DNA of 21,104 bases from a virus: positions 1 to 21,104 of the IMG/VR virus record IMGVR_UViG_3300031260_000113; one strand, 5' to 3'. A program made the translations under genes and the position numbers. The notes beneath the pieces were generated by a model. It did no database searches. It was not told the origin of the DNA and saw only the letters and a program-made list of their open reading frames with translations. This document shows positions 1 through 5,530 of the stretch, one piece after another (the stretch's first letter is position 1; every line of letters begins with the position of its first letter).

Positions 1-349
1 ACAAGATTAAGGTCTGTAACATCAATCCAGTATTCAAAATGTTCTCAGCTGTTTTTTCCCACCTCTTTTTCATGACAACCTTGTCCATTCCTGGAGTAAA
101 TGGATAATCCAGGGGAACGGTGTATTCTGGTTTTAACGTCTTCTGAATATTGAGGACCCGCTCTTCCTTCAGGATGCTCTTTTGAGAATTTTTGAGGGCG
201 CTGTAGGCTCCGTTATCAAGAAAAAGTTTATTATAGTCATATTCTATCTTGGGGTCTTCTAGATGATAGTAGTTGATAACACTGTCCATCACATAGTTAT
301 GTTTCAGTTTAATTGATTTGTTTGGGGTTTCTCCTGCCCAGTATTTCAT
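1..349 (-). CDS. TGT-fold (queuine/archaeosine tRNA-ribosyltransferase-like, DpdA-like) guanine transglycosylase, 3'-partial; absent from ORF track because it runs off the window
   Basis: Manual translation from ATG 349: MKYWAGETPNKSIKLKHNYVMDSVINYYHLEDPKIEYDYNKLFLDNGAYSALKNSQKSILKEERVLNIQKTLKPEYTVPLDYPFTPGMDKVVMKKRWEKTAENIL... LFLDNGAYS and IQKTLKPEYTVPLDYP match the TGT motifs hhhDSG(A/G)(F/Y)S and Q..h.PD....LD.P. GC 137/360 = 38% over 1-360. Confidence 0.72.
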   Translation of the reverse strand, partial: MKYWAGETPNKSIKLKHNYVMDSVINYYHLEDPKIEYDYNKLFLDNGAYSALKNSQKSILKEERVLNIQKTLKPEYTVPLDYPFTPGMDKVVMKKRWEKTAENILNTGLMLQTLIL

Positions 350-391
350 TATATTTCAGCCCTTATACCATTTTTTTGTGCAGGTGGTGGG

Positions 392-412
392 GGTGGGGGT
401 GGTGTCCCCACC
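392..412. other. GC-rich hairpin (GGTGGGG-7 nt-CCCCACC) overlapping the stop of the 144 aa gene, inside a G-tract-rich stretch
   Basis: 392-398 GGTGGGG is the exact reverse complement of 406-412 CCCCACC. No U-tract follows on the minus (sense) strand (A7 instead), so terminator function is doubtful. Confidence 0.45.
394..405. repeat. Dispersed motif TGGGGGTGGTGT, copy 1 of 3
   Basis: Identical 12-mer at 394, 2049 and 2387, all intergenic. Copies 1 and 3 share 14 nt plus an upstream TGCAGGTG. Confidence 0.8.
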
Positions 413-846
413 TATAGGAGGTCTAGGATTTTTTCTTCAAGCTTTCTGCGCGTGTTCTCCATGAGGAGTTTTTCTTTCACCTCCCCGTCTAGTTCTTCTA
501 TGTATTCTTGGAGGATCCTCCTCGCTTTCTCTGAGTCTTTGGCGAGGAAGATCTTCTCTATTGTCTCCTCCCATCCTCTCTGGTCTTGGAGGGTGTGGTG
601 GAGGATGGTGAGGGGGTTTTGGATTGTTTCCCATTCTCTCCCCTGGGTTTTGACTCTGATGCTGATGCGGAAGGGGATGGTATATAGGGTGTGGATGAGG
701 ATGTCCACGGGCCTGGTTGGGTTTCCTGTGCGGAGTCTTATTATGTCGGCGTTGCTCTCTGCTCGGATGATTTTCTCCGCGTTCCTCCGTATGAAGTTCT
801 GGAAGTCCTTGTCTTTTCGTATTCTTCTTTTGATGGGTTTTTTCAT
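412..846 (-). CDS. Hypothetical protein, 144 aa (MKKPIKRRIRKDKDF...), basic N-terminus and helical acidic C-terminus
   Basis: ATG 846 preceded by AAGGAGGAAACC. The 35 upstream codons in the ORF track are low-complexity and belong to another gene's frame. Confidence 0.85.
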   Translation of the reverse strand: MKKPIKRRIRKDKDFQNFIRRNAEKIIRAESNADIIRLRTGNPTRPVDILIHTLYTIPFRISIRVKTQGREWETIQNPLTILHHTLQDQRGWEETIEKIFLAKDSEKARRILQEYIEELDGEVKEKLLMENTRRKLEEKILDLL

Positions 847-980
847 GGTTTCCTCCTTCTCCTTCTGGGTTCTAGTCTCCTGCGTTTGGGTGGTTCCTGG
901 TGGGTGAGGCGGAGTATGAGGCTGGCTATGGTGGCGGTGAGGATGGTCCATGTGAGGAAGAGTGTTCCTGGTGGTGTCAC
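843..980 (-). CDS. 45 aa single-pass membrane microprotein with poly-Arg tail (MTPPGTLFLTWTILTATIASLILRLTHQEPPKRRRLEPRRRRRKP); not in ORF track
   Basis: GTG 980 overlaps upstream stop (GTGA), GGAGGT 7 nt upstream, TGA overlaps next ATG (ATGA). Fills the gap exactly; codons end in A/C like its neighbours; hydrophobic stretch aa 7-25. Confidence 0.78.
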   Translation of the reverse strand: MTPPGTLFLTWTILTATIASLILRLTHQEPPKRRRLEPRRRRRKP

Positions 981-1639
981 TGGTATGACCTCCGGGGTCG
1001 TGTGTGTTGTATTGGTGTCATGGCGTTTTGGATGATTGCGTCTGGGTCTTGCTTGATCAGCTTCTCCCTGCGTCTCTGTATCTCCTTCTTGGTGTTCTCC
1101 ACGAGTTTTCCGCCGTGTCGCTGGATGTCTCCTAGGGTGATTTGTTCGGGTGGTTTTCCTGTTGTCTCCATGCAGATCCTCCGGAAGATTTCTCTGGGGT
1201 CTTCTCCGTGGCTTTCCTTGTATTTCGTGAAGATTTCATCGTATTCGCATGCTTTGAGGGCTCTGATGTTGTTTATGCCGACGTTGGGGCTGATTCCCAG
1301 CGTGCGGCTGCTGAGTGTCCTGGTGAAGAATCGGCTTAGGAGGTCGAGTAGGAGGATTTCGAAGATGGTGGGTCGTGGTCCGCGTCCTCCGTGTGGTGTG
1401 ATGATTTTCCCGTCGATGCGGACGCGTGGTTTCTGTTTTTCTTCCGGTGGGAGGTTTCTGAGTGTCTCTGAGACCAGGGGGATGTTTGTGAGGAGTATGT
1501 TCGCTATTTCTGGTTCTGTGTAGCCTTCTCTGTAGAGTTGGATGATTATTCTCTCTCTTTCCCGTGCTGTGATCTGTTCTGGGTTGGTGAGGGGTAGTTT
1601 TGGGGTTGGTGGGGTGAGGTTGAGTCTTATTTTCGTCAT
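977..1639 (-). CDS. Helix-turn-helix DNA-binding protein, 220 aa
   Basis: ATG 1639 with GGAGGAGAGTGA upstream. ERERIIIQLYREGYTEPEIANILLTNIPLVSETLRNL is HTH-like, followed by GGRGPRP and a second weaker HTH-like segment (RTLSSRTLGISPNVGINNIR). Confidence 0.75.
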   Translation of the reverse strand: MTKIRLNLTPPTPKLPLTNPEQITARERERIIIQLYREGYTEPEIANILLTNIPLVSETLRNLPPEEKQKPRVRIDGKIITPHGGRGPRPTIFEILLLDLLSRFFTRTLSSRTLGISPNVGINNIRALKACEYDEIFTKYKESHGEDPREIFRRICMETTGKPPEQITLGDIQRHGGKLVENTKKEIQRRREKLIKQDPDAIIQNAMTPIQHTRPRRSYQ

Positions 1640-1644
1640 TGGGC

Positions 1645-2019
1645 TCACTCTCCTCCTTCGCTGTGGTGTATGATGATTTCTAGGATTTCTTGTGGTCCGC
1701 GTAGTTCTGTGACGATTTCTTCTTCGATGAGGGTGGCTTTTAGTTCCTTGTTTTCTGTGTAGATTGTTATGGTTGCTCCGGTGGGGAGTGGTAGTCTTCG
1801 GGGGCCTCCTTCCTGGAGGATGCTGGTGATTGTTTCTTCTGGTCTTTTGTTTACCTTTATGGGTGTTGGTTGGTACCCTATTTTCTCTAGGTTCTTCCTG
1901 AGTTTTTCTTGGCGTTCTTCTCGGACTCTCCGGATGTTTCCTCCGGGGAGTTTCAGGTACAGGTTTCCGTTCTGGTCCTGGTAGAAGTGGACCAGGGTAT
2001 CTGTCTCTTCCCATGCCAT
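1645..2019 (-). CDS. Hypothetical protein, 124 aa (MAWEETDTLVHFYQDQNGNLYLKLPGG...), first gene of the leftward unit
   Basis: ATG 2019 with GAGGTGA SD about 5 nt upstream (alternative GTG 2028). Stop lies inside the SD of the next gene. Confidence 0.8.
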   Translation of the reverse strand: MAWEETDTLVHFYQDQNGNLYLKLPGGNIRRVREERQEKLRKNLEKIGYQPTPIKVNKRPEETITSILQEGGPRRLPLPTGATITIYTENKELKATLIEEEIVTELRGPQEILEIIIHHSEGGE

Positions 2020-2048
2020 CGGTTTCACCTCTCCTTTTTTTCTTTGTG

Positions 2049-2060
2049 TGGGGGTGGTGT
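2049..2060. repeat. Dispersed motif TGGGGGTGGTGT, copy 2 of 3
   Basis: Exact match, just upstream of the SD of the 124 aa gene. Confidence 0.8.
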
Positions 2061-2097
2061 GTGGTGTTCCCCCGTCTTCTTTTTCTGTTTCTTTTTG

Positions 2098-2112
2098 TAT
2101 ATATTTTTTTTT
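2098..2112 (-). promoter_or_regulatory. Putative archaeal promoter (A-rich BRE + TATATA) for the leftward genes
   Basis: Minus strand reads AAAAAAAAA-TATATA-C, about 80 nt upstream of ATG 2019. Predicted start site near 2073. Confidence 0.45.
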
Positions 2113-2346
2113 GTTTCGGTGTTTCTGGGATGGGTTTATATGTGCCAGGGATTATATAGATTCTCATGGTGGGTTTGGGGTGTTGCGCGGCTGCTTTTTT
2201 TTGGTTTTGTGGTGGGTTTCCCCTCAGTCTGGTCTCTCCATGATGGTGTCACCTCCCCTCGGGATGTCTGATGAGAGCCGCGCGATCCCCCCACCACTCT
2301 TTTTTTTGTCCCCTGCTATCCTTTTTTTCCTCTTTTTTGTGTGGGT

Positions 2347-2380
2347 CCTGGAGGTCATCTTGCAGGTCATCCTGCAGGTG
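2347..2380. repeat. 12-bp tandem repeat, about 2.8 copies (CCTGGAGGTCAT CTTGCAGGTCAT CCTGCAGGTG)
   Basis: Read directly from the sequence; 1-2 mismatches between units. Confidence 0.85.
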
Positions 2381-2386
2381 TGTGGA

Positions 2387-2398
2387 TGGGGGTGGTGT
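2387..2398. repeat. Dispersed motif TGGGGGTGGTGT, copy 3 of 3
   Basis: Exact match, between the 12-bp tandem array and the palindromic TATA. Confidence 0.8.
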
Positions 2399-2403
2399 CC
2401 ACG

Positions 2404-2411
2404 CATATATG
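2404..2411. promoter_or_regulatory. Palindromic TATA-like element CATATATG, candidate late-operon promoter, possibly bidirectional
   Basis: Perfect 8-bp palindrome centred about 24 nt upstream of GTG 2432, the spacing expected for a leaderless or short-leader archaeal transcript. Confidence 0.45.
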
Positions 2412-2431
2412 TGTAGAGGGGGATTTGGGTA

Positions 2432-2899
2432 GTGTATTCTCGGCGTAGGGTTTGTGTGCGTTGCGGGGAGCTTATCCCCCCGTCTCGGAGGAAGTATTGT
2501 CCTGTTTGCGCTGTCCTGGTGAGGCGGGAGCAGAAGCGGGAGTATCAGAGGCGGTATCGGCGCTTGTTACGTGGTCTTGGCCGGGAGGGTTTGGGTGAGG
2601 GCAGGTTGGGGCCTCATCGGAATCCTGATCATCGTGTGGAGGCTGGGGTGGTTCGTCGGGAGCTTCGCAGGCTTCTTGGGCGTTCTAGTAGTGGTTTTCG
2701 GGATTCTCAAGTGTCCCCGGGGCCCTTGGCGATTCCTCCTCCTGTTTGGGGTTCGTGTCCTGAGTGTTTTTCGGATCAGGTGTTTTGGGATCCGCTTCGG
2801 CGGGAGTTCTCGTGTCAGGACTGTGGGTTGGTCCTTTCAGGGCCTTATGAGTATTCTGCGGGGTTTCGGGTTGATTTCCCGTGGGGGTTGATTATTTGA
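2432..2899 (+). CDS. Double zinc-finger protein, 155 aa: N-terminal CxxC..CxxC finger with Arg-rich helix, C-terminal TFB/TFIIB-type zinc ribbon
   Basis: CVRC-x11-CPVC followed by RREQKREYQRRYRR. CPEC-x15-CQDCGLVL matches the TFB ribbon pattern CPECG..x15..CxxCGLV. Confidence 0.8.
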   Translation: MYSRRRVCVRCGELIPPSRRKYCPVCAVLVRREQKREYQRRYRRLLRGLGREGLGEGRLGPHRNPDHRVEAGVVRRELRRLLGRSSSGFRDSQVSPGPLAIPPPVWGSCPECFSDQVFWDPLRREFSCQDCGLVLSGPYEYSAGFRVDFPWGLII

Positions 2900-2918
2900 A
2901 GCTTTTTGAGGTGATGAT

Positions 2919-3173
2919 ATGGTTTTTGATTGGAGAAACGTGAATGGTTGGCTGAGCACGTACGTTCTCGGGTTTGTTGTGGTTTTTGAGGGTCTACTCC
3001 TGTCTAATCCTGATCTAGGGGTTCGTCTATTGGAGGATGTTGGTTTAGGTGCCTACGCGCCCCTTATCCTGAGTCTAGCGGCTTTTACGTACGATTTCCT
3101 GTATCCTCGTGCTTCTCATCCCCCTTCCAATTCCTCTGCCGCTGATGATGACGGTCCTGATGAGGGGGCATAG
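2919..3173 (+). CDS. Small two-TM membrane protein with acidic tail, holin-like candidate, 84 aa
   Basis: GAGGTGA SD; hydrophobic segments about aa 14-29 and 43-62; C-terminal DDDGPDEGA. Confidence 0.6.
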   Translation: MVFDWRNVNGWLSTYVLGFVVVFEGLLLSNPDLGVRLLEDVGLGAYAPLILSLAAFTYDFLYPRASHPPSNSSAADDDGPDEGA

Positions 3174-3220
3174 CAGCCTCCTCAGTTCTGGTTTCTAGGA
3201 TGAGGTGCGTGGAGGTTCTG

Positions 3221-3523
3221 ATGGTGGATCGGAAGCATGAAAATTCCTGTTTAAATGAGAAGAGGATTGAGCGGATTGAAGTGAACCTGGAGTCGCTCCG
3301 GGAGGGTTTTTCGGAGTATAAGAAGGTGAACAGCGTCCAGGATGAGCGGATATGTGATCTGAGGGCTGATCTCGCTGAATACATGGAGGAGATGAAGAAT
3401 ATGAGGCGGAGCGTCCTCCTCCTTGAGGGGACTATAAATGAGATGCGCTGGGTCCTCAAAATCTTCATTGGGACGATGCTAGCGGCTATCGTGAAGGATC
3501 TCATCTTCCTTGGTTTCAGGTGA
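3221..3523 (+). CDS. Coiled-coil protein with C-terminal TM helix (XhlA-like architecture), 100 aa
   Basis: ATG 3221 after GGAGG (ORF-track ATG 3200 less likely). Heptad-rich body; ends WVLKIFIGTMLAAIVKDLIFLGFR. Confidence 0.65.
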   Translation: MVDRKHENSCLNEKRIERIEVNLESLREGFSEYKKVNSVQDERICDLRADLAEYMEEMKNMRRSVLLLEGTINEMRWVLKIFIGTMLAAIVKDLIFLGFR

Positions 3524-3537
3524 TGGTGGTGATCAGT

Positions 3538-4134
3538 GTGGACGTGGACTGGGGCCTGGTGGAGAAGGAGTATATTCATGGGGTGACGCGGGAGGATGGT
3601 TCTATCGTCTTCCCAACCCTGAAGGATCTCGCTGCGAAGCATGGGGTTTCATATCATGCTGTTCTGAAACGTGCGAAGGAGGAGGGTTGGGGTAGCCGGC
3701 GTGAGAGGGTTCAGGAGCGTGTGAAGATTCATCTGGATCGTCTCAGGGCTGATCAGATCGCGAGGAGTATCGCGGGGATGGATCTGATCTTCTTCGAGAC
3801 GAGCATGCGCCTAGCTCTCCTCTTGGGGGAGCATGTGGATCTCCTCCGTCAGAAAACGAGCCAAGGGGAGCTTGTTAGGAGTTCAGAGTTCTATAACATC
3901 TCCTTGGCCCTTAAATCCGCCTATGAAGTTTCCAAGGCCTCATTGGAGGATGGTGATGATGGTAAAGCTAAACCGGGCGGTGGGAAGGCAGCTAAATCCT
4001 CATCCGCTAAGTCCCGGCCCGTCACTGAGGTGAAGGAGAAGGCTGCGAAAGACCTGATGAAGAAGCTGATGAAGGAGAAAACAGAGAAAAGAAAGCCCCG
4101 TGTGATCGAACTGGAGGCGTCAGATGCTGATTGA
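3538..4134 (+). CDS. terS: Terminase small subunit (about 198 aa; alternative starts 3520/3523)
   Basis: DWGLVEKEYIHG...TLKDLAAKHGVSYHAVLKRAKEEGW is a typical TerS N-terminal HTH. Overlaps the terL start; GGTGA SD before GTG 3538. Confidence 0.8.
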   Translation: MDVDWGLVEKEYIHGVTREDGSIVFPTLKDLAAKHGVSYHAVLKRAKEEGWGSRRERVQERVKIHLDRLRADQIARSIAGMDLIFFETSMRLALLLGEHVDLLRQKTSQGELVRSSEFYNISLALKSAYEVSKASLEDGDDGKAKPGGGKAAKSSSAKSRPVTEVKEKAAKDLMKKLMKEKTEKRKPRVIELEASDAD

Positions 4135-5530
4135 GGTGAAGGACCCTGCCGAGCGGGTTGAGAGGAAGATGGAGGTCTTCAGGGAGCTGAAGGAGAAGGG
4201 GGAGTACGATTTCCTTGACGAACACCCCAGGGAGTCCGTGGAGGCCTTCATTGAGGGGATAATCCTGAATGAGTTCATCCCCACCATCCCCACGCCGAAG
4301 CAGGCTCTTTTCCTCCTATCTGATGAACCTGAGGTCCTCTACGGTGGAGCGGCTGGTGGTGGGAAGTCCGAAGGTCTTCTGATGGCAGCATTGCAGTATG
4401 TTCACGTGGAGGATTATCGTGCGCTTCTCCTTCGCCGAAACTACCCCGAGTTAACCCTCCCTGGTGGTTTGATCGATCGTGCGCATCAGTGGCTCCACAG
4501 TACTGATGCTGAGTGGGCTGGTGAGAAGAAAACGTGGCGTTTCCCCTCCGGAGCCACATTGACGTTTGGTCATATCGACGTTGACCGTGATAAGTACAGG
4601 TATCAGTCCACTGAGTTCCAGTTCATCGGATTCGACGAGTTGACTGAATTCACGGAGCACCAGTACCTTTTCCTGTTCAGCAGGCTCCGTAAGACCTCTG
4701 ATAACCCTGTACCTCTCCGTATGCGGGCCGCGACGAACCCCACGGGCTCCGGGCTCCGCTGGGTCCGTAAACGGTTCATATTGGATGAGGAAGCGCATTT
4801 CATCCCCGCCACGTTCCGTGATAACCCCTTCCTTGATTCAGGGTACTTGGATTCCTTGAAGAAGCTTGATCCGATAACAAGGCGCCAGTTGAAGGATGGT
4901 GATTGGATGGCTGAGGAGAAGGGCGGGCTCTTCGAGGAGAAATGGTTCCAGCGCTTCGCACTGGATCCCCCGAACCTCCTGCGGAGGGTCCGGTTCTGGG
5001 ATATTGCCTCCACGCCTCCAGGCGCGGGGAAAGACCCGGATTGGACCGTGGGGACCCTGATGGGTGTGGATGCGAATGGATACTACTACGTCCTTGACGT
5101 GGATCGTTTCCAGGCCAGCGCGAGGGACGTGGAGGAGCGTATACTCTGGAATGCTGAGAAGGATGGTCAGGACACGATCATATTGATCGAGCAGGAGCCA
5201 GGGGCCTCCGGGAAGATGATAGTCGATTATTTCAAGCGGAAATTGGATGGGAAGATCGTGTATGGTGTTAGACCTGTGAAGGACAAGTTTCAGCGTGCCA
5301 GGCCCCTGAGCAGTTATGCTGAGGCCGGTAGGGTGTTTGTGCGGGATGCTCCGTGGAGTGATGACTTCCTCTATGAGTTATCTGTCTTCCCACGCCATGG
5401 GGTGCATGATGACCAGGTGGACAGTGTCTGCGGGGCCTTCAATTACCTTATTCAGCGCGGAGGGTCCGATCTGGCCGTCTACGGGGCTGTGACGCGTGGA
5501 AAAGGACGTTTTGGGCATGAGGTGACATGA
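4124..5530 (+). CDS. terL: Terminase large subunit (Terminase_6/6C type), 468 aa
   Basis: Walker A YGGAAGGGKS, Walker B FIGFDELTEF, RAATNP motif, nuclease motifs FWDIAST and HDDQVDS. Confidence 0.96.
   Translation: MLIEVKDPAERVERKMEVFRELKEKGEYDFLDEHPRESVEAFIEGIILNEFIPTIPTPKQALFLLSDEPEVLYGGAAGGGKSEGLLMAALQYVHVEDYRALLLRRNYPELTLPGGLIDRAHQWLHSTDAEWAGEKKTWRFPSGATLTFGHIDVDRDKYRYQSTEFQFIGFDELTEFTEHQYLFLFSRLRKTSDNPVPLRMRAATNPTGSGLRWVRKRFILDEEAHFIPATFRDNPFLDSGYLDSLKKLDPITRRQLKDGDWMAEEKGGLFEEKWFQRFALDPPNLLRRVRFWDIASTPPGAGKDPDWTVGTLMGVDANGYYYVLDVDRFQASARDVEERILWNAEKDGQDTIILIEQEPGASGKMIVDYFKRKLDGKIVYGVRPVKDKFQRARPLSSYAEAGRVFVRDAPWSDDFLYELSVFPRHGVHDDQVDSVCGAFNYLIQRGGSDLAVYGAVTRGKGRFGHEVT

Follow-up and report, generated by a model that had tools for sequence, protein, structure and literature searches.

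Start of a DpdA-like gene at the end of a methanogen virus contig: a candidate for DNA modification with host preQ0

Does the short, low-GC reading frame at the left end of a virus contig belong to an enzyme that would place a modified guanine in viral DNA? The window, by which we mean the whole stretch of DNA analyzed, is the entire 21,104-base IMG/VR record IMGVR_UViG_3300031260_000113, which is classed as linear and about 59% complete. A reading of this DNA from its letters alone (the sequence-only reading) had pointed to an open reading frame here with two aspartates of the tRNA-guanine transglycosylase (TGT) type. We found this frame on the minus strand at 2 to 349, with D45 in LFLDNGAYS and D81 in PLDYP. 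The low GC content with an abrupt break that had been described is also present: GC is 38.5% in 2 to 349 versus 55.5% in 412 to 21104, and the break falls between 350 and about 450. Our answer, held with moderate confidence, is that window 2 to 349 is the start of a virus-borne gene for a DpdA-like DNA transglycosylase that uses host preQ0. That the substrate is DNA, that the base is preQ0, and that the gene counters restriction are inferences. The features at the left end are listed here.

2 to 349, minus strand: 5' part (codons 1 to 116) of the DpdA-like TGT-superfamily gene, with its ATG at 347 to 349, cut by the left end of the contig
215 to 217, minus strand: codon for Asp45, in LFLDNGAYS, which pairs with D95 of 1IQ8 and hardly varies among 137 relatives
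107 to 109, minus strand: codon for Asp81, in PLDYPF, nearly invariant in 137 relatives, the counterpart of Asp130 of ArcTGT/DpdA
36 to 39, minus strand: +2 insertion, sense-strand TTTT versus TT in five relatives (AAAA versus AA on the other strand), after which the frame shifts (after codon 104)
350 to 411, minus strand: spacer that separates the DpdA-like gene from the leftward gene block; its sense strand has a C-rich motif, with another copy at 2373 to 2409, and an A7 run but no oligo-T; this junction is common to the sister lineage

The 116-residue product of the window reading frame (P0001) can be aligned in frame with its relatives over codons 1 to 104 and amounts to about the first third of a single-domain TGT-superfamily protein of about 349 amino acids (aa). 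The counterpart of Asp45 is the general acid/base Asp95 of ArcTGT and bacterial DpdA, that of Asp81 is the base-recognizing Asp130 of the same enzymes, and the two residues are 36 positions apart, versus 35 in ArcTGT and bacterial DpdA (PMC10164549). Further details of the sequence-only reading were borne out as well. The DNG found where DSG is usual is a feature of the subfamily, which has LDNGAF/Y, while the consensus of the wider family is LDSGGF. Just 44 residues precede the first aspartate: D45 corresponds to Asp95 of Pyrococcus horikoshii ArcTGT, and residue 1 of the structural model described below corresponds to ArcTGT residue 34. No oligo-T lies between the stop of the upstream reading frame (412) and the ATG (349), which agrees with the reported absence of a U-tract.

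By itself, the fragment scores low against family models. It matched phrog_887, "queuine tRNA-ribosyltransferase," weakly (E 3e-4). Against the Pfam TGT model (PF01702), with a gathering cut-off of 26.3 bits, the fragment reached 12 bits, and its full-length relatives P0003 and P0004 reached 19.1 and 29.6 bits. TIGR00432, the ArcTGT equivalog model, has a cut-off of 350 bits, and the fragment scored 11.3. PADLOC models gave no match for the fragment, P0003, or P0004.

Full-length relatives give a clearer picture. A search for longer proteins with P0001 returned about twenty homologues of about 349 aa, with E values from 1e-57 to 1e-18. Since full-length homologues match at E 1e-57, the homology of the window reading frame is well beyond chance. 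The best homologue, P0003, is a 348-aa protein encoded on the chromosome of Methanothermobacter sp. EMTCatA1, with 89% amino acid identity over residues 1 to 104. P0004, from metagenome contigs of a sister virus lineage, is 81% identical to the window fragment. In the 20 close relatives, D45, D81, a GFGSSP loop (residues 189 to 194), D209 (motif STDS), and C264-x-C266-xx-C269...H293 are invariant. A profile search of 1.84 billion representative sequences gave 389 relatives at an E value of ≤1e-3, and we aligned 137 of these. D209 is invariant in this alignment; D45, D81, H120, the three cysteines, and H293 are each conserved in at least 90% of the sequences, and the GxGSSP motif is kept across the 20 close and the 137 distant relatives alike. 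Relatives in Asgard, Nitrosopumilus, and Bathyarchaeia genomes share 40 to 49% identity.

The same 137 relatives were scanned for domains. PF01702 was matched by 130 of them at an E value of ≤1e-3 (best, 8e-34), a further domain was found in none, and the PUA and C1 to C3 tRNA-binding domains were absent. When the PDB was searched by sequence, P. horikoshii ArcTGT was the sole match (E 2e-4); in that alignment, D45 pairs with Asp95, D209 with Asp249, and each zinc ligand with its counterpart. In the reading we favor, the full gene encodes a compact, zinc-containing TIM-barrel guanine transglycosylase of the TGT superfamily.

We then compared structures. An AlphaFold2 (AF2) model of the full-length relative P0004 built from the 137-sequence alignment had a pLDDT of 91.4 and a pTM of 0.90; it superseded an earlier AF2 model from 20 close sequences, in which the pLDDT was 66 and the N terminus was unresolved. 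The structural search placed the catalytic domain of ArcTGT 1IQ8 first (Z 27.1; root mean square deviation, 3.3 Å over 303 residues), with residues 1 to 349 of the model lying on residues 34 to 362 of the chain. Bacterial TGT 3UNT (Z 23.9), QTRT2 (Z 22.6), the DNA preQ0 insertase DpdA 7UI4 (Z 21.6 over 284 residues, 18% identity to the P0004 model), and Cap10 (Z 19.1) were further matches, and generic TIM barrels came after the TGT-type folds, at Z 13. Because the scores to TGT-type folds run from Z 27.1 to Z 19.1 and then drop to Z 13, a P0004-type protein is, by its model, a compact TGT-superfamily barrel. The model has no equivalent of about the first 33 residues of ArcTGT or of the three C-terminal tRNA-binding domains of that enzyme. 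The missing N-terminal residues are those that form the lid of TGTs (PMC10164549). With 44 residues before the first catalytic aspartate, the family offers a minimal TGT barrel that would be useful for structural work.

Is the window copy itself intact? The extra TT at 36 to 39 is unique to the window among six aligned alleles, and the last 12 residues of the window fragment (LNTGLMLQTLIL) are out of frame with respect to all homologues. The codons for D209 and the zinc site fall past the contig end, behind this frameshift, and are seen in the relatives only. With the closest alleles as a proxy for the missing sequence, the shifted frame meets a stop near codon 128 to 149, before Asp209 and the zinc site. 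The window copy may thus be broken or misassembled. If the insertion is real, the window copy would be a dead remnant: translation would end at about codon 130 to 150, the product would have neither the nucleophilic aspartate nor the zinc site, and the virus would gain nothing from it, whatever the role of the family in other settings. The uniqueness of the TT and the early closing of the proxy frame speak for this account, as does the failure to find the window's allele on an independent contig, with none among proteins of 63 to 203 aa and its exact 33-mer absent from viral contigs. However, the extra TT belongs to a T-run only 35 bases short of the contig end, a place where assembly errors are most to be expected. 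In addition, the 103 codons that precede it are free of stops and are under purifying selection: dN/dS over these in-frame codons is 0.10 to 0.16 against the two closest alleles, with dS at about 0.4 to 0.5. Any inactivation would therefore be very recent. All four sister-lineage contigs, moreover, carry an intact 349-aa gene. We regard a dead remnant as less likely than not, but as a real possibility for the window copy.

For an intact gene of this lineage, we asked which known enzymes it most resembles. Phages, haloviruses, and Sulfolobus viruses are all known to have DpdA enzymes that place 7-deazaguanines in DNA. With tblastn against GenBank phages, the best matches were the genes annotated "queuine tRNA-ribosyltransferase" of STSV1, STSV2, and STSV4 (25% identity, E about 1e-14), followed by cyanophage and Sphingomonas phage genes. 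The family profile aligned to STSV2_15 by hhalign at 98.9% (E 1.5e-17), phrog_887 matched P0003 at E 2e-12, and structural neighbors in BFVD were DpdA-type proteins from phages, among them Vibrio phage nt-1 and Cellulophaga phage phiST. The sequence-only reading had proposed a DpdA-like protein that is not a housekeeping tRNA TGT and had suggested a profile comparison with DpdA and ArcTGT. The comparison came out in favor of this proposal: hhalign gave 98.9% for the DpdA STSV2_15, and the score against the ArcTGT equivalog model TIGR00432 was far below its cut-off (11 bits versus 350). The relatives are also about 349 aa long with PF01702 only, and the closest viral homologue is the DpdA of STSV2.

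The DpdA proteins of STSV1 and STSV2 resemble the window protein in being short, single-domain, TGT-like proteins of archaeal viruses, and they are its best viral sequence match. STSV-2 encodes DpdA and a stand-alone ArcS catalytic domain (ArcS2, DUF5591), and its DNA contains dCDG, a 7-deazaguanine (PMC10516641). The two systems also differ. STSV2_15 has no cysteine at the columns of C264, C266, and C269 in the hhalign alignment, and the gene order in STSV2 is dpdA and then arcS2, whereas the virus of the window is without arcS2. An ArcS2 homologue does adjoin the cellular relatives of the window gene, with 29% identity to STSV2_16 (E 2e-16). Methanogens make 7-deazaguanines, in contrast to the crenarchaeal host of STSV2. 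That crenarchaeon has been described as not making them (PMC10516641). Since lone viral dpdA genes have been reported (PMC10516641), the absence of neighboring pathway genes does not exclude membership in the DpdA group.

More remote are the phage enzymes DpdA1 and DpdA2. CAjan DpdA and nt-1 DpdA2 insert preQ0 into DNA after replication and give protection from restriction (PMC6884629, PMC10516641), and when nt-1 DpdA2 is coexpressed with ArcS2, dG+ results (PMC10516641). Like the window gene, they are virus encoded and TGT-like, and they are its structural neighbors in BFVD. Unlike it, many such phages carry FolE, QueD, QueE, and QueC, none of which the virus of the window has, and the sequence similarity is remote. 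Bacterial DpdA is known by three aspartates, a CxCx2Cx22H zinc site, and a missing lid (PMC10164549). The structure 7UI4 shares with the window family its fold, the three aspartates, this zinc site (x23 in the window family), and the lack of an N-terminal lid, and the cellular relatives of the window gene, as in the bacterial Dpd system, are also found in defense-type operons. The large Ins8 helical insertion of bacterial DpdA is absent from the window family, and the N terminus of the window family is about 50 residues shorter. The distance from the nucleophile to the zinc site is 55 residues in the window family versus 112 in the bacterial enzyme (PMC10164549). Among the cellular operon neighbors scanned, there was no Pfam or PADLOC match to DpdB or DpdC.

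Could the enzyme act on RNA instead? Sequence alone does not tell a DNA from a tRNA substrate, and the closest solved structure, ArcTGT, is that of a tRNA enzyme. Canonical ArcTGT modifies tRNA position 15. An enzyme of the window family acting on host or viral tRNA would insert preQ0 or another base and so tune translation during infection. The catalytic aspartate and zinc ligands do align with those of ArcTGT 1IQ8, and the best NCBIfam and Pfam names are, like that structure, tRNA transglycosylases. However, the family is without the C1, C2, and PUA domains and the N-terminal lid of ArcTGT, and its score against TIGR00432 is a small part of that expected for an equivalog. The gene is found in viruses, mobile elements, and defense islands and not in housekeeping contexts, and no tRNA is encoded in the window. 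On this evidence, a tRNA substrate is quite improbable.

The reading that we favor, a virus-borne DpdA-like gene, depends on the gene being part of the virus. The remainder of the window is organized as follows.

412 to 2400, minus strand: small genes of unassigned function, of which the DpdA-like gene is the last member; collinear with and 82 to 88% identical to contig L009, where four genes of 119 to 225 aa are called
2432 to 2899, plus strand: zinc-ribbon (TFIIB-type) protein, the first gene of the rightward block (PF08271, E 9e-8), also present in L009
3520 to 20895 (about 3,200 to 20,900), plus strand: siphovirus structural module with small and large terminase, Mu-type portal, MuF-like protein, tail tube, tape measure, and Dit-like protein

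The matches within the structural module included terminase phrog_979 (E 4e-119), Portal_Mu (E 2e-31), tape-measure PHROGs, and SPP1_Dit. Because the entire window had no megablast hit among GenBank phages and the best matches of the portal protein were to Bacillus phages at about 25% identity, the virus has no cultured close relative. We located relatives in assemblies. The 10.2-kb contig L009 is collinear with window 1 to 2987 at 85% identity and has an intact 349-codon gene at the same junction. Contigs L010 and L011, from other samples, and L111 have an intact gene at this junction as well, and the four contigs form one lineage. G001, a sister record of 29,184 bases, shares 93% identity with window 1518 to 21104 and runs 9.6 kb further to the right. 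L009 and L111 match both ends of G001, and the map closes as a circle of about 34 kb, a size that agrees with CheckV completeness estimates. In this map, the DpdA-like gene is the last in the leftward block and is convergent with the end of the rightward block. A search of IMG/VR for relatives carrying the gene found none; the carriers came from metagenome contigs.

The remaining account, that the gene is host DNA in an integrated provirus flank or a chimeric virus/host join, is extremely unlikely and was rejected on the circular map: the window piece and a gene on the Methanothermobacter chromosome share 89.7% identity, the chromosomal homology begins precisely at the ATG, and the GC content is sharply unlike that of the virus, but the same junction recurs in four independent sister-lineage assemblies, those contigs run into the genes at the right end of G001 so that the circle closes with the gene inside, and neither a tyrosine integrase nor a tRNA gene was found. 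On present evidence, then, the gene lies inside the virus; the sequence-only reading had named a position in host DNA outside the virus boundary as a refuting outcome.

Several other observations were made on this map. An imperfect direct repeat, 84% identical over about 37 bases and G-rich on the plus strand, occurs at window 379 to 416 and 2373 to 2409; the two copies flank the leftward gene block, and the copy beside the DpdA-like gene is kept in the sister lineage. A 396-aa reading frame in that block (977 to 2167, minus strand) overlaps other reading frames, and the first half of its product is very basic and rich in Pro, Thr, and Arg. It is probably overcalled, because L009 has three smaller genes there (119, 124, and 225 aa). 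A 240-aa Cys/Trp/Gly-rich reading frame in a gap of L009 was judged spurious. In the 1,439-aa tape-measure gene, a 1.1-kb segment (15298 to 16405) is 68% identical to G001, between flanks of 93 to 94% identity, and is a swapped or fast-evolving cassette. Assemblies break around the DpdA-like gene: it is cut by the end of the window, and the 4.8-kb segment that holds it lies between the two ends of G001. These breaks may come from near-identical alleles in host and virus reads.

The sister record also bears on the host. G001 encodes a pseudomurein endoisopeptidase at 23467 to 24501 (L098:9467-10501; Peptidase_C71, E 5.5e-58), and therefore the host belongs to the Methanobacteriales, the pseudomurein-walled methanogens. 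The host genus is probably Methanothermobacter. Four genes of unassigned function (136, 182, 282, and 723 aa) follow the endoisopeptidase gene on the same strand, the last with a faint AAA_16 match.

The sequence-only reading had called for a look at neighboring que and arcS genes, which we carried out on the window, G001, and the bridging contig. There were no queC, queD, queE-type, or arcS genes: no QueC, PTPS/QueD, radical SAM, or DUF5591 (ArcS) match occurred in the window or G001, and the reading frames of the bridging segment had no Pfam match. The host must therefore supply any substrate. If the gene does encode a DpdA-like DNA transglycosylase, the compact enzyme would act on double-stranded viral DNA after replication. 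It would insert a 7-deazaguanine drawn from the host archaeosine pathway; because the virus is without que genes, this base would probably be host preQ0. The modified base would then shield viral DNA from host restriction. Several points count against this reading: the virus is without the ArcS partner found in the cellular and RecT-element contexts described below, the +2 insertion, if real, removes Asp209 and the zinc site, the closest solved structure is a tRNA enzyme, PADLOC gave no match for the full-length proteins, and the fragment falls below the Pfam cut-off.

How did the virus come by this gene? Upstream of the ATG there is no DNA homology to the host chromosome; it begins with that codon. 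The DpdA-like gene is low in GC wherever it is found (37 to 43%). At the nucleotide level, the window piece is 89.7% identical to the host (Methanothermobacter) allele and 90.0% identical to the allele on a short contig, L012, in which no ArcS gene lies upstream. However, it is only 77.9% identical to the sister-lineage allele, though the flanking genes are 86 to 91% identical. With identity of about 90% to the host and L012 alleles but 77.9% to the sister virus, and with dN/dS of 0.10 to 0.16, the pattern fits a mobile, selected gene whose alleles pass between virus and host pools. Alleles repeatedly exchanged with the host gene pool would fit these comparisons better than one fresh capture. 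The suggestion that the gene was recently acquired is accordingly right only in part: the junction is shared by a virus lineage with flanks of 86 to 91% identity, and dS against the host allele is about 0.4 to 0.5.

The closest host relative lies in an operon, found also on other contigs.

L003:8689-18456 (EMTCatA1 chromosome), also on L101, L102, and L103: ArcS2/DpdA-like/NurA/HerA operon

On the chromosome of Methanothermobacter sp. EMTCatA1, the DpdA-like gene overlaps an upstream gene for a 197-aa DUF5591 protein by 4 bp. The stretch LPCAAIKPYYNSPIH in this protein fits the ArcS motif PC-X3-KPY-X2-S-X2-H exactly. The order of the operon, which recurs in four contexts, is a protein of about 250 aa, ArcS2, the DpdA-like protein, a protein of about 263 aa, an AAA ATPase of about 1,100 aa, a protein of about 180 aa, NurA, and HerA. 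The genes around it are defense genes. In EMTCatA1, it comes directly after DISARM DrmA (E 0) and DrmB (E 1e-171), and McrBC follows it; in other contigs, the surroundings include GmrSD, an N6 methylase, and SNF2 helicases. Methanobacterium formicicum BRM9 has an ArcS2/DpdA-like pair with a different downstream set, including a 1,579-aa helicase. The operon looks like an undescribed archaeal modification-plus-effector defense system. A pair with the same 4-bp overlap also ends a low-GC element on L013 (1 to 11047; also on L014 and L015), together with RecT, a Cas4-like (Cas_VVA1548) protein, a metallophosphoesterase, and an 872-aa protein. This RecT element is probably another virus or plasmid with the full ArcS2/DpdA-like pair.

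Because the window gene shares about 90% identity with a host copy located in a defense island beside an ArcS2 partner, the viral enzyme may specifically copy the self-mark of the host ArcS2/NurA/HerA system. A wider proposal, which we put forward tentatively and think unlikely, starts from an undescribed defense system of archaea whose self-mark is a 7-deazaguanine. The virus would have taken over the gene that sets this mark on DNA, would still be exchanging alleles of it, and, by making the marker itself, would pass its DNA off as that of the host and escape the system. The members of that system would be a clamp-like protein, ArcS2, DpdA, the protein of about 263 aa, the AAA ATPase of about 1,100 aa, the protein of about 180 aa, NurA, and HerA.

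The kind of system, a viral DpdA, is known, lone dpdA genes included; we found no literature report of a viral DpdA in viruses of pseudomurein-walled methanogens. If the DNA-modifying reading is true, this virus lineage would modify its DNA with a tRNA-modification precursor supplied by the host and would need a single gene for it, with no pathway encoded in the virus. The identity of about 90% to a defense-island host gene leads to a testable hypothesis, that the virus may be in competition with its host for one DNA mark. The protein of about 250 aa encoded upstream of ArcS2 (L003:8689-9414) had neither a Pfam match nor a PDB sequence match. By language-model features, it resembles viral PCNA/sliding-clamp clusters (score, 0.95), and if it were a clamp, this would be an argument for a DNA substrate.
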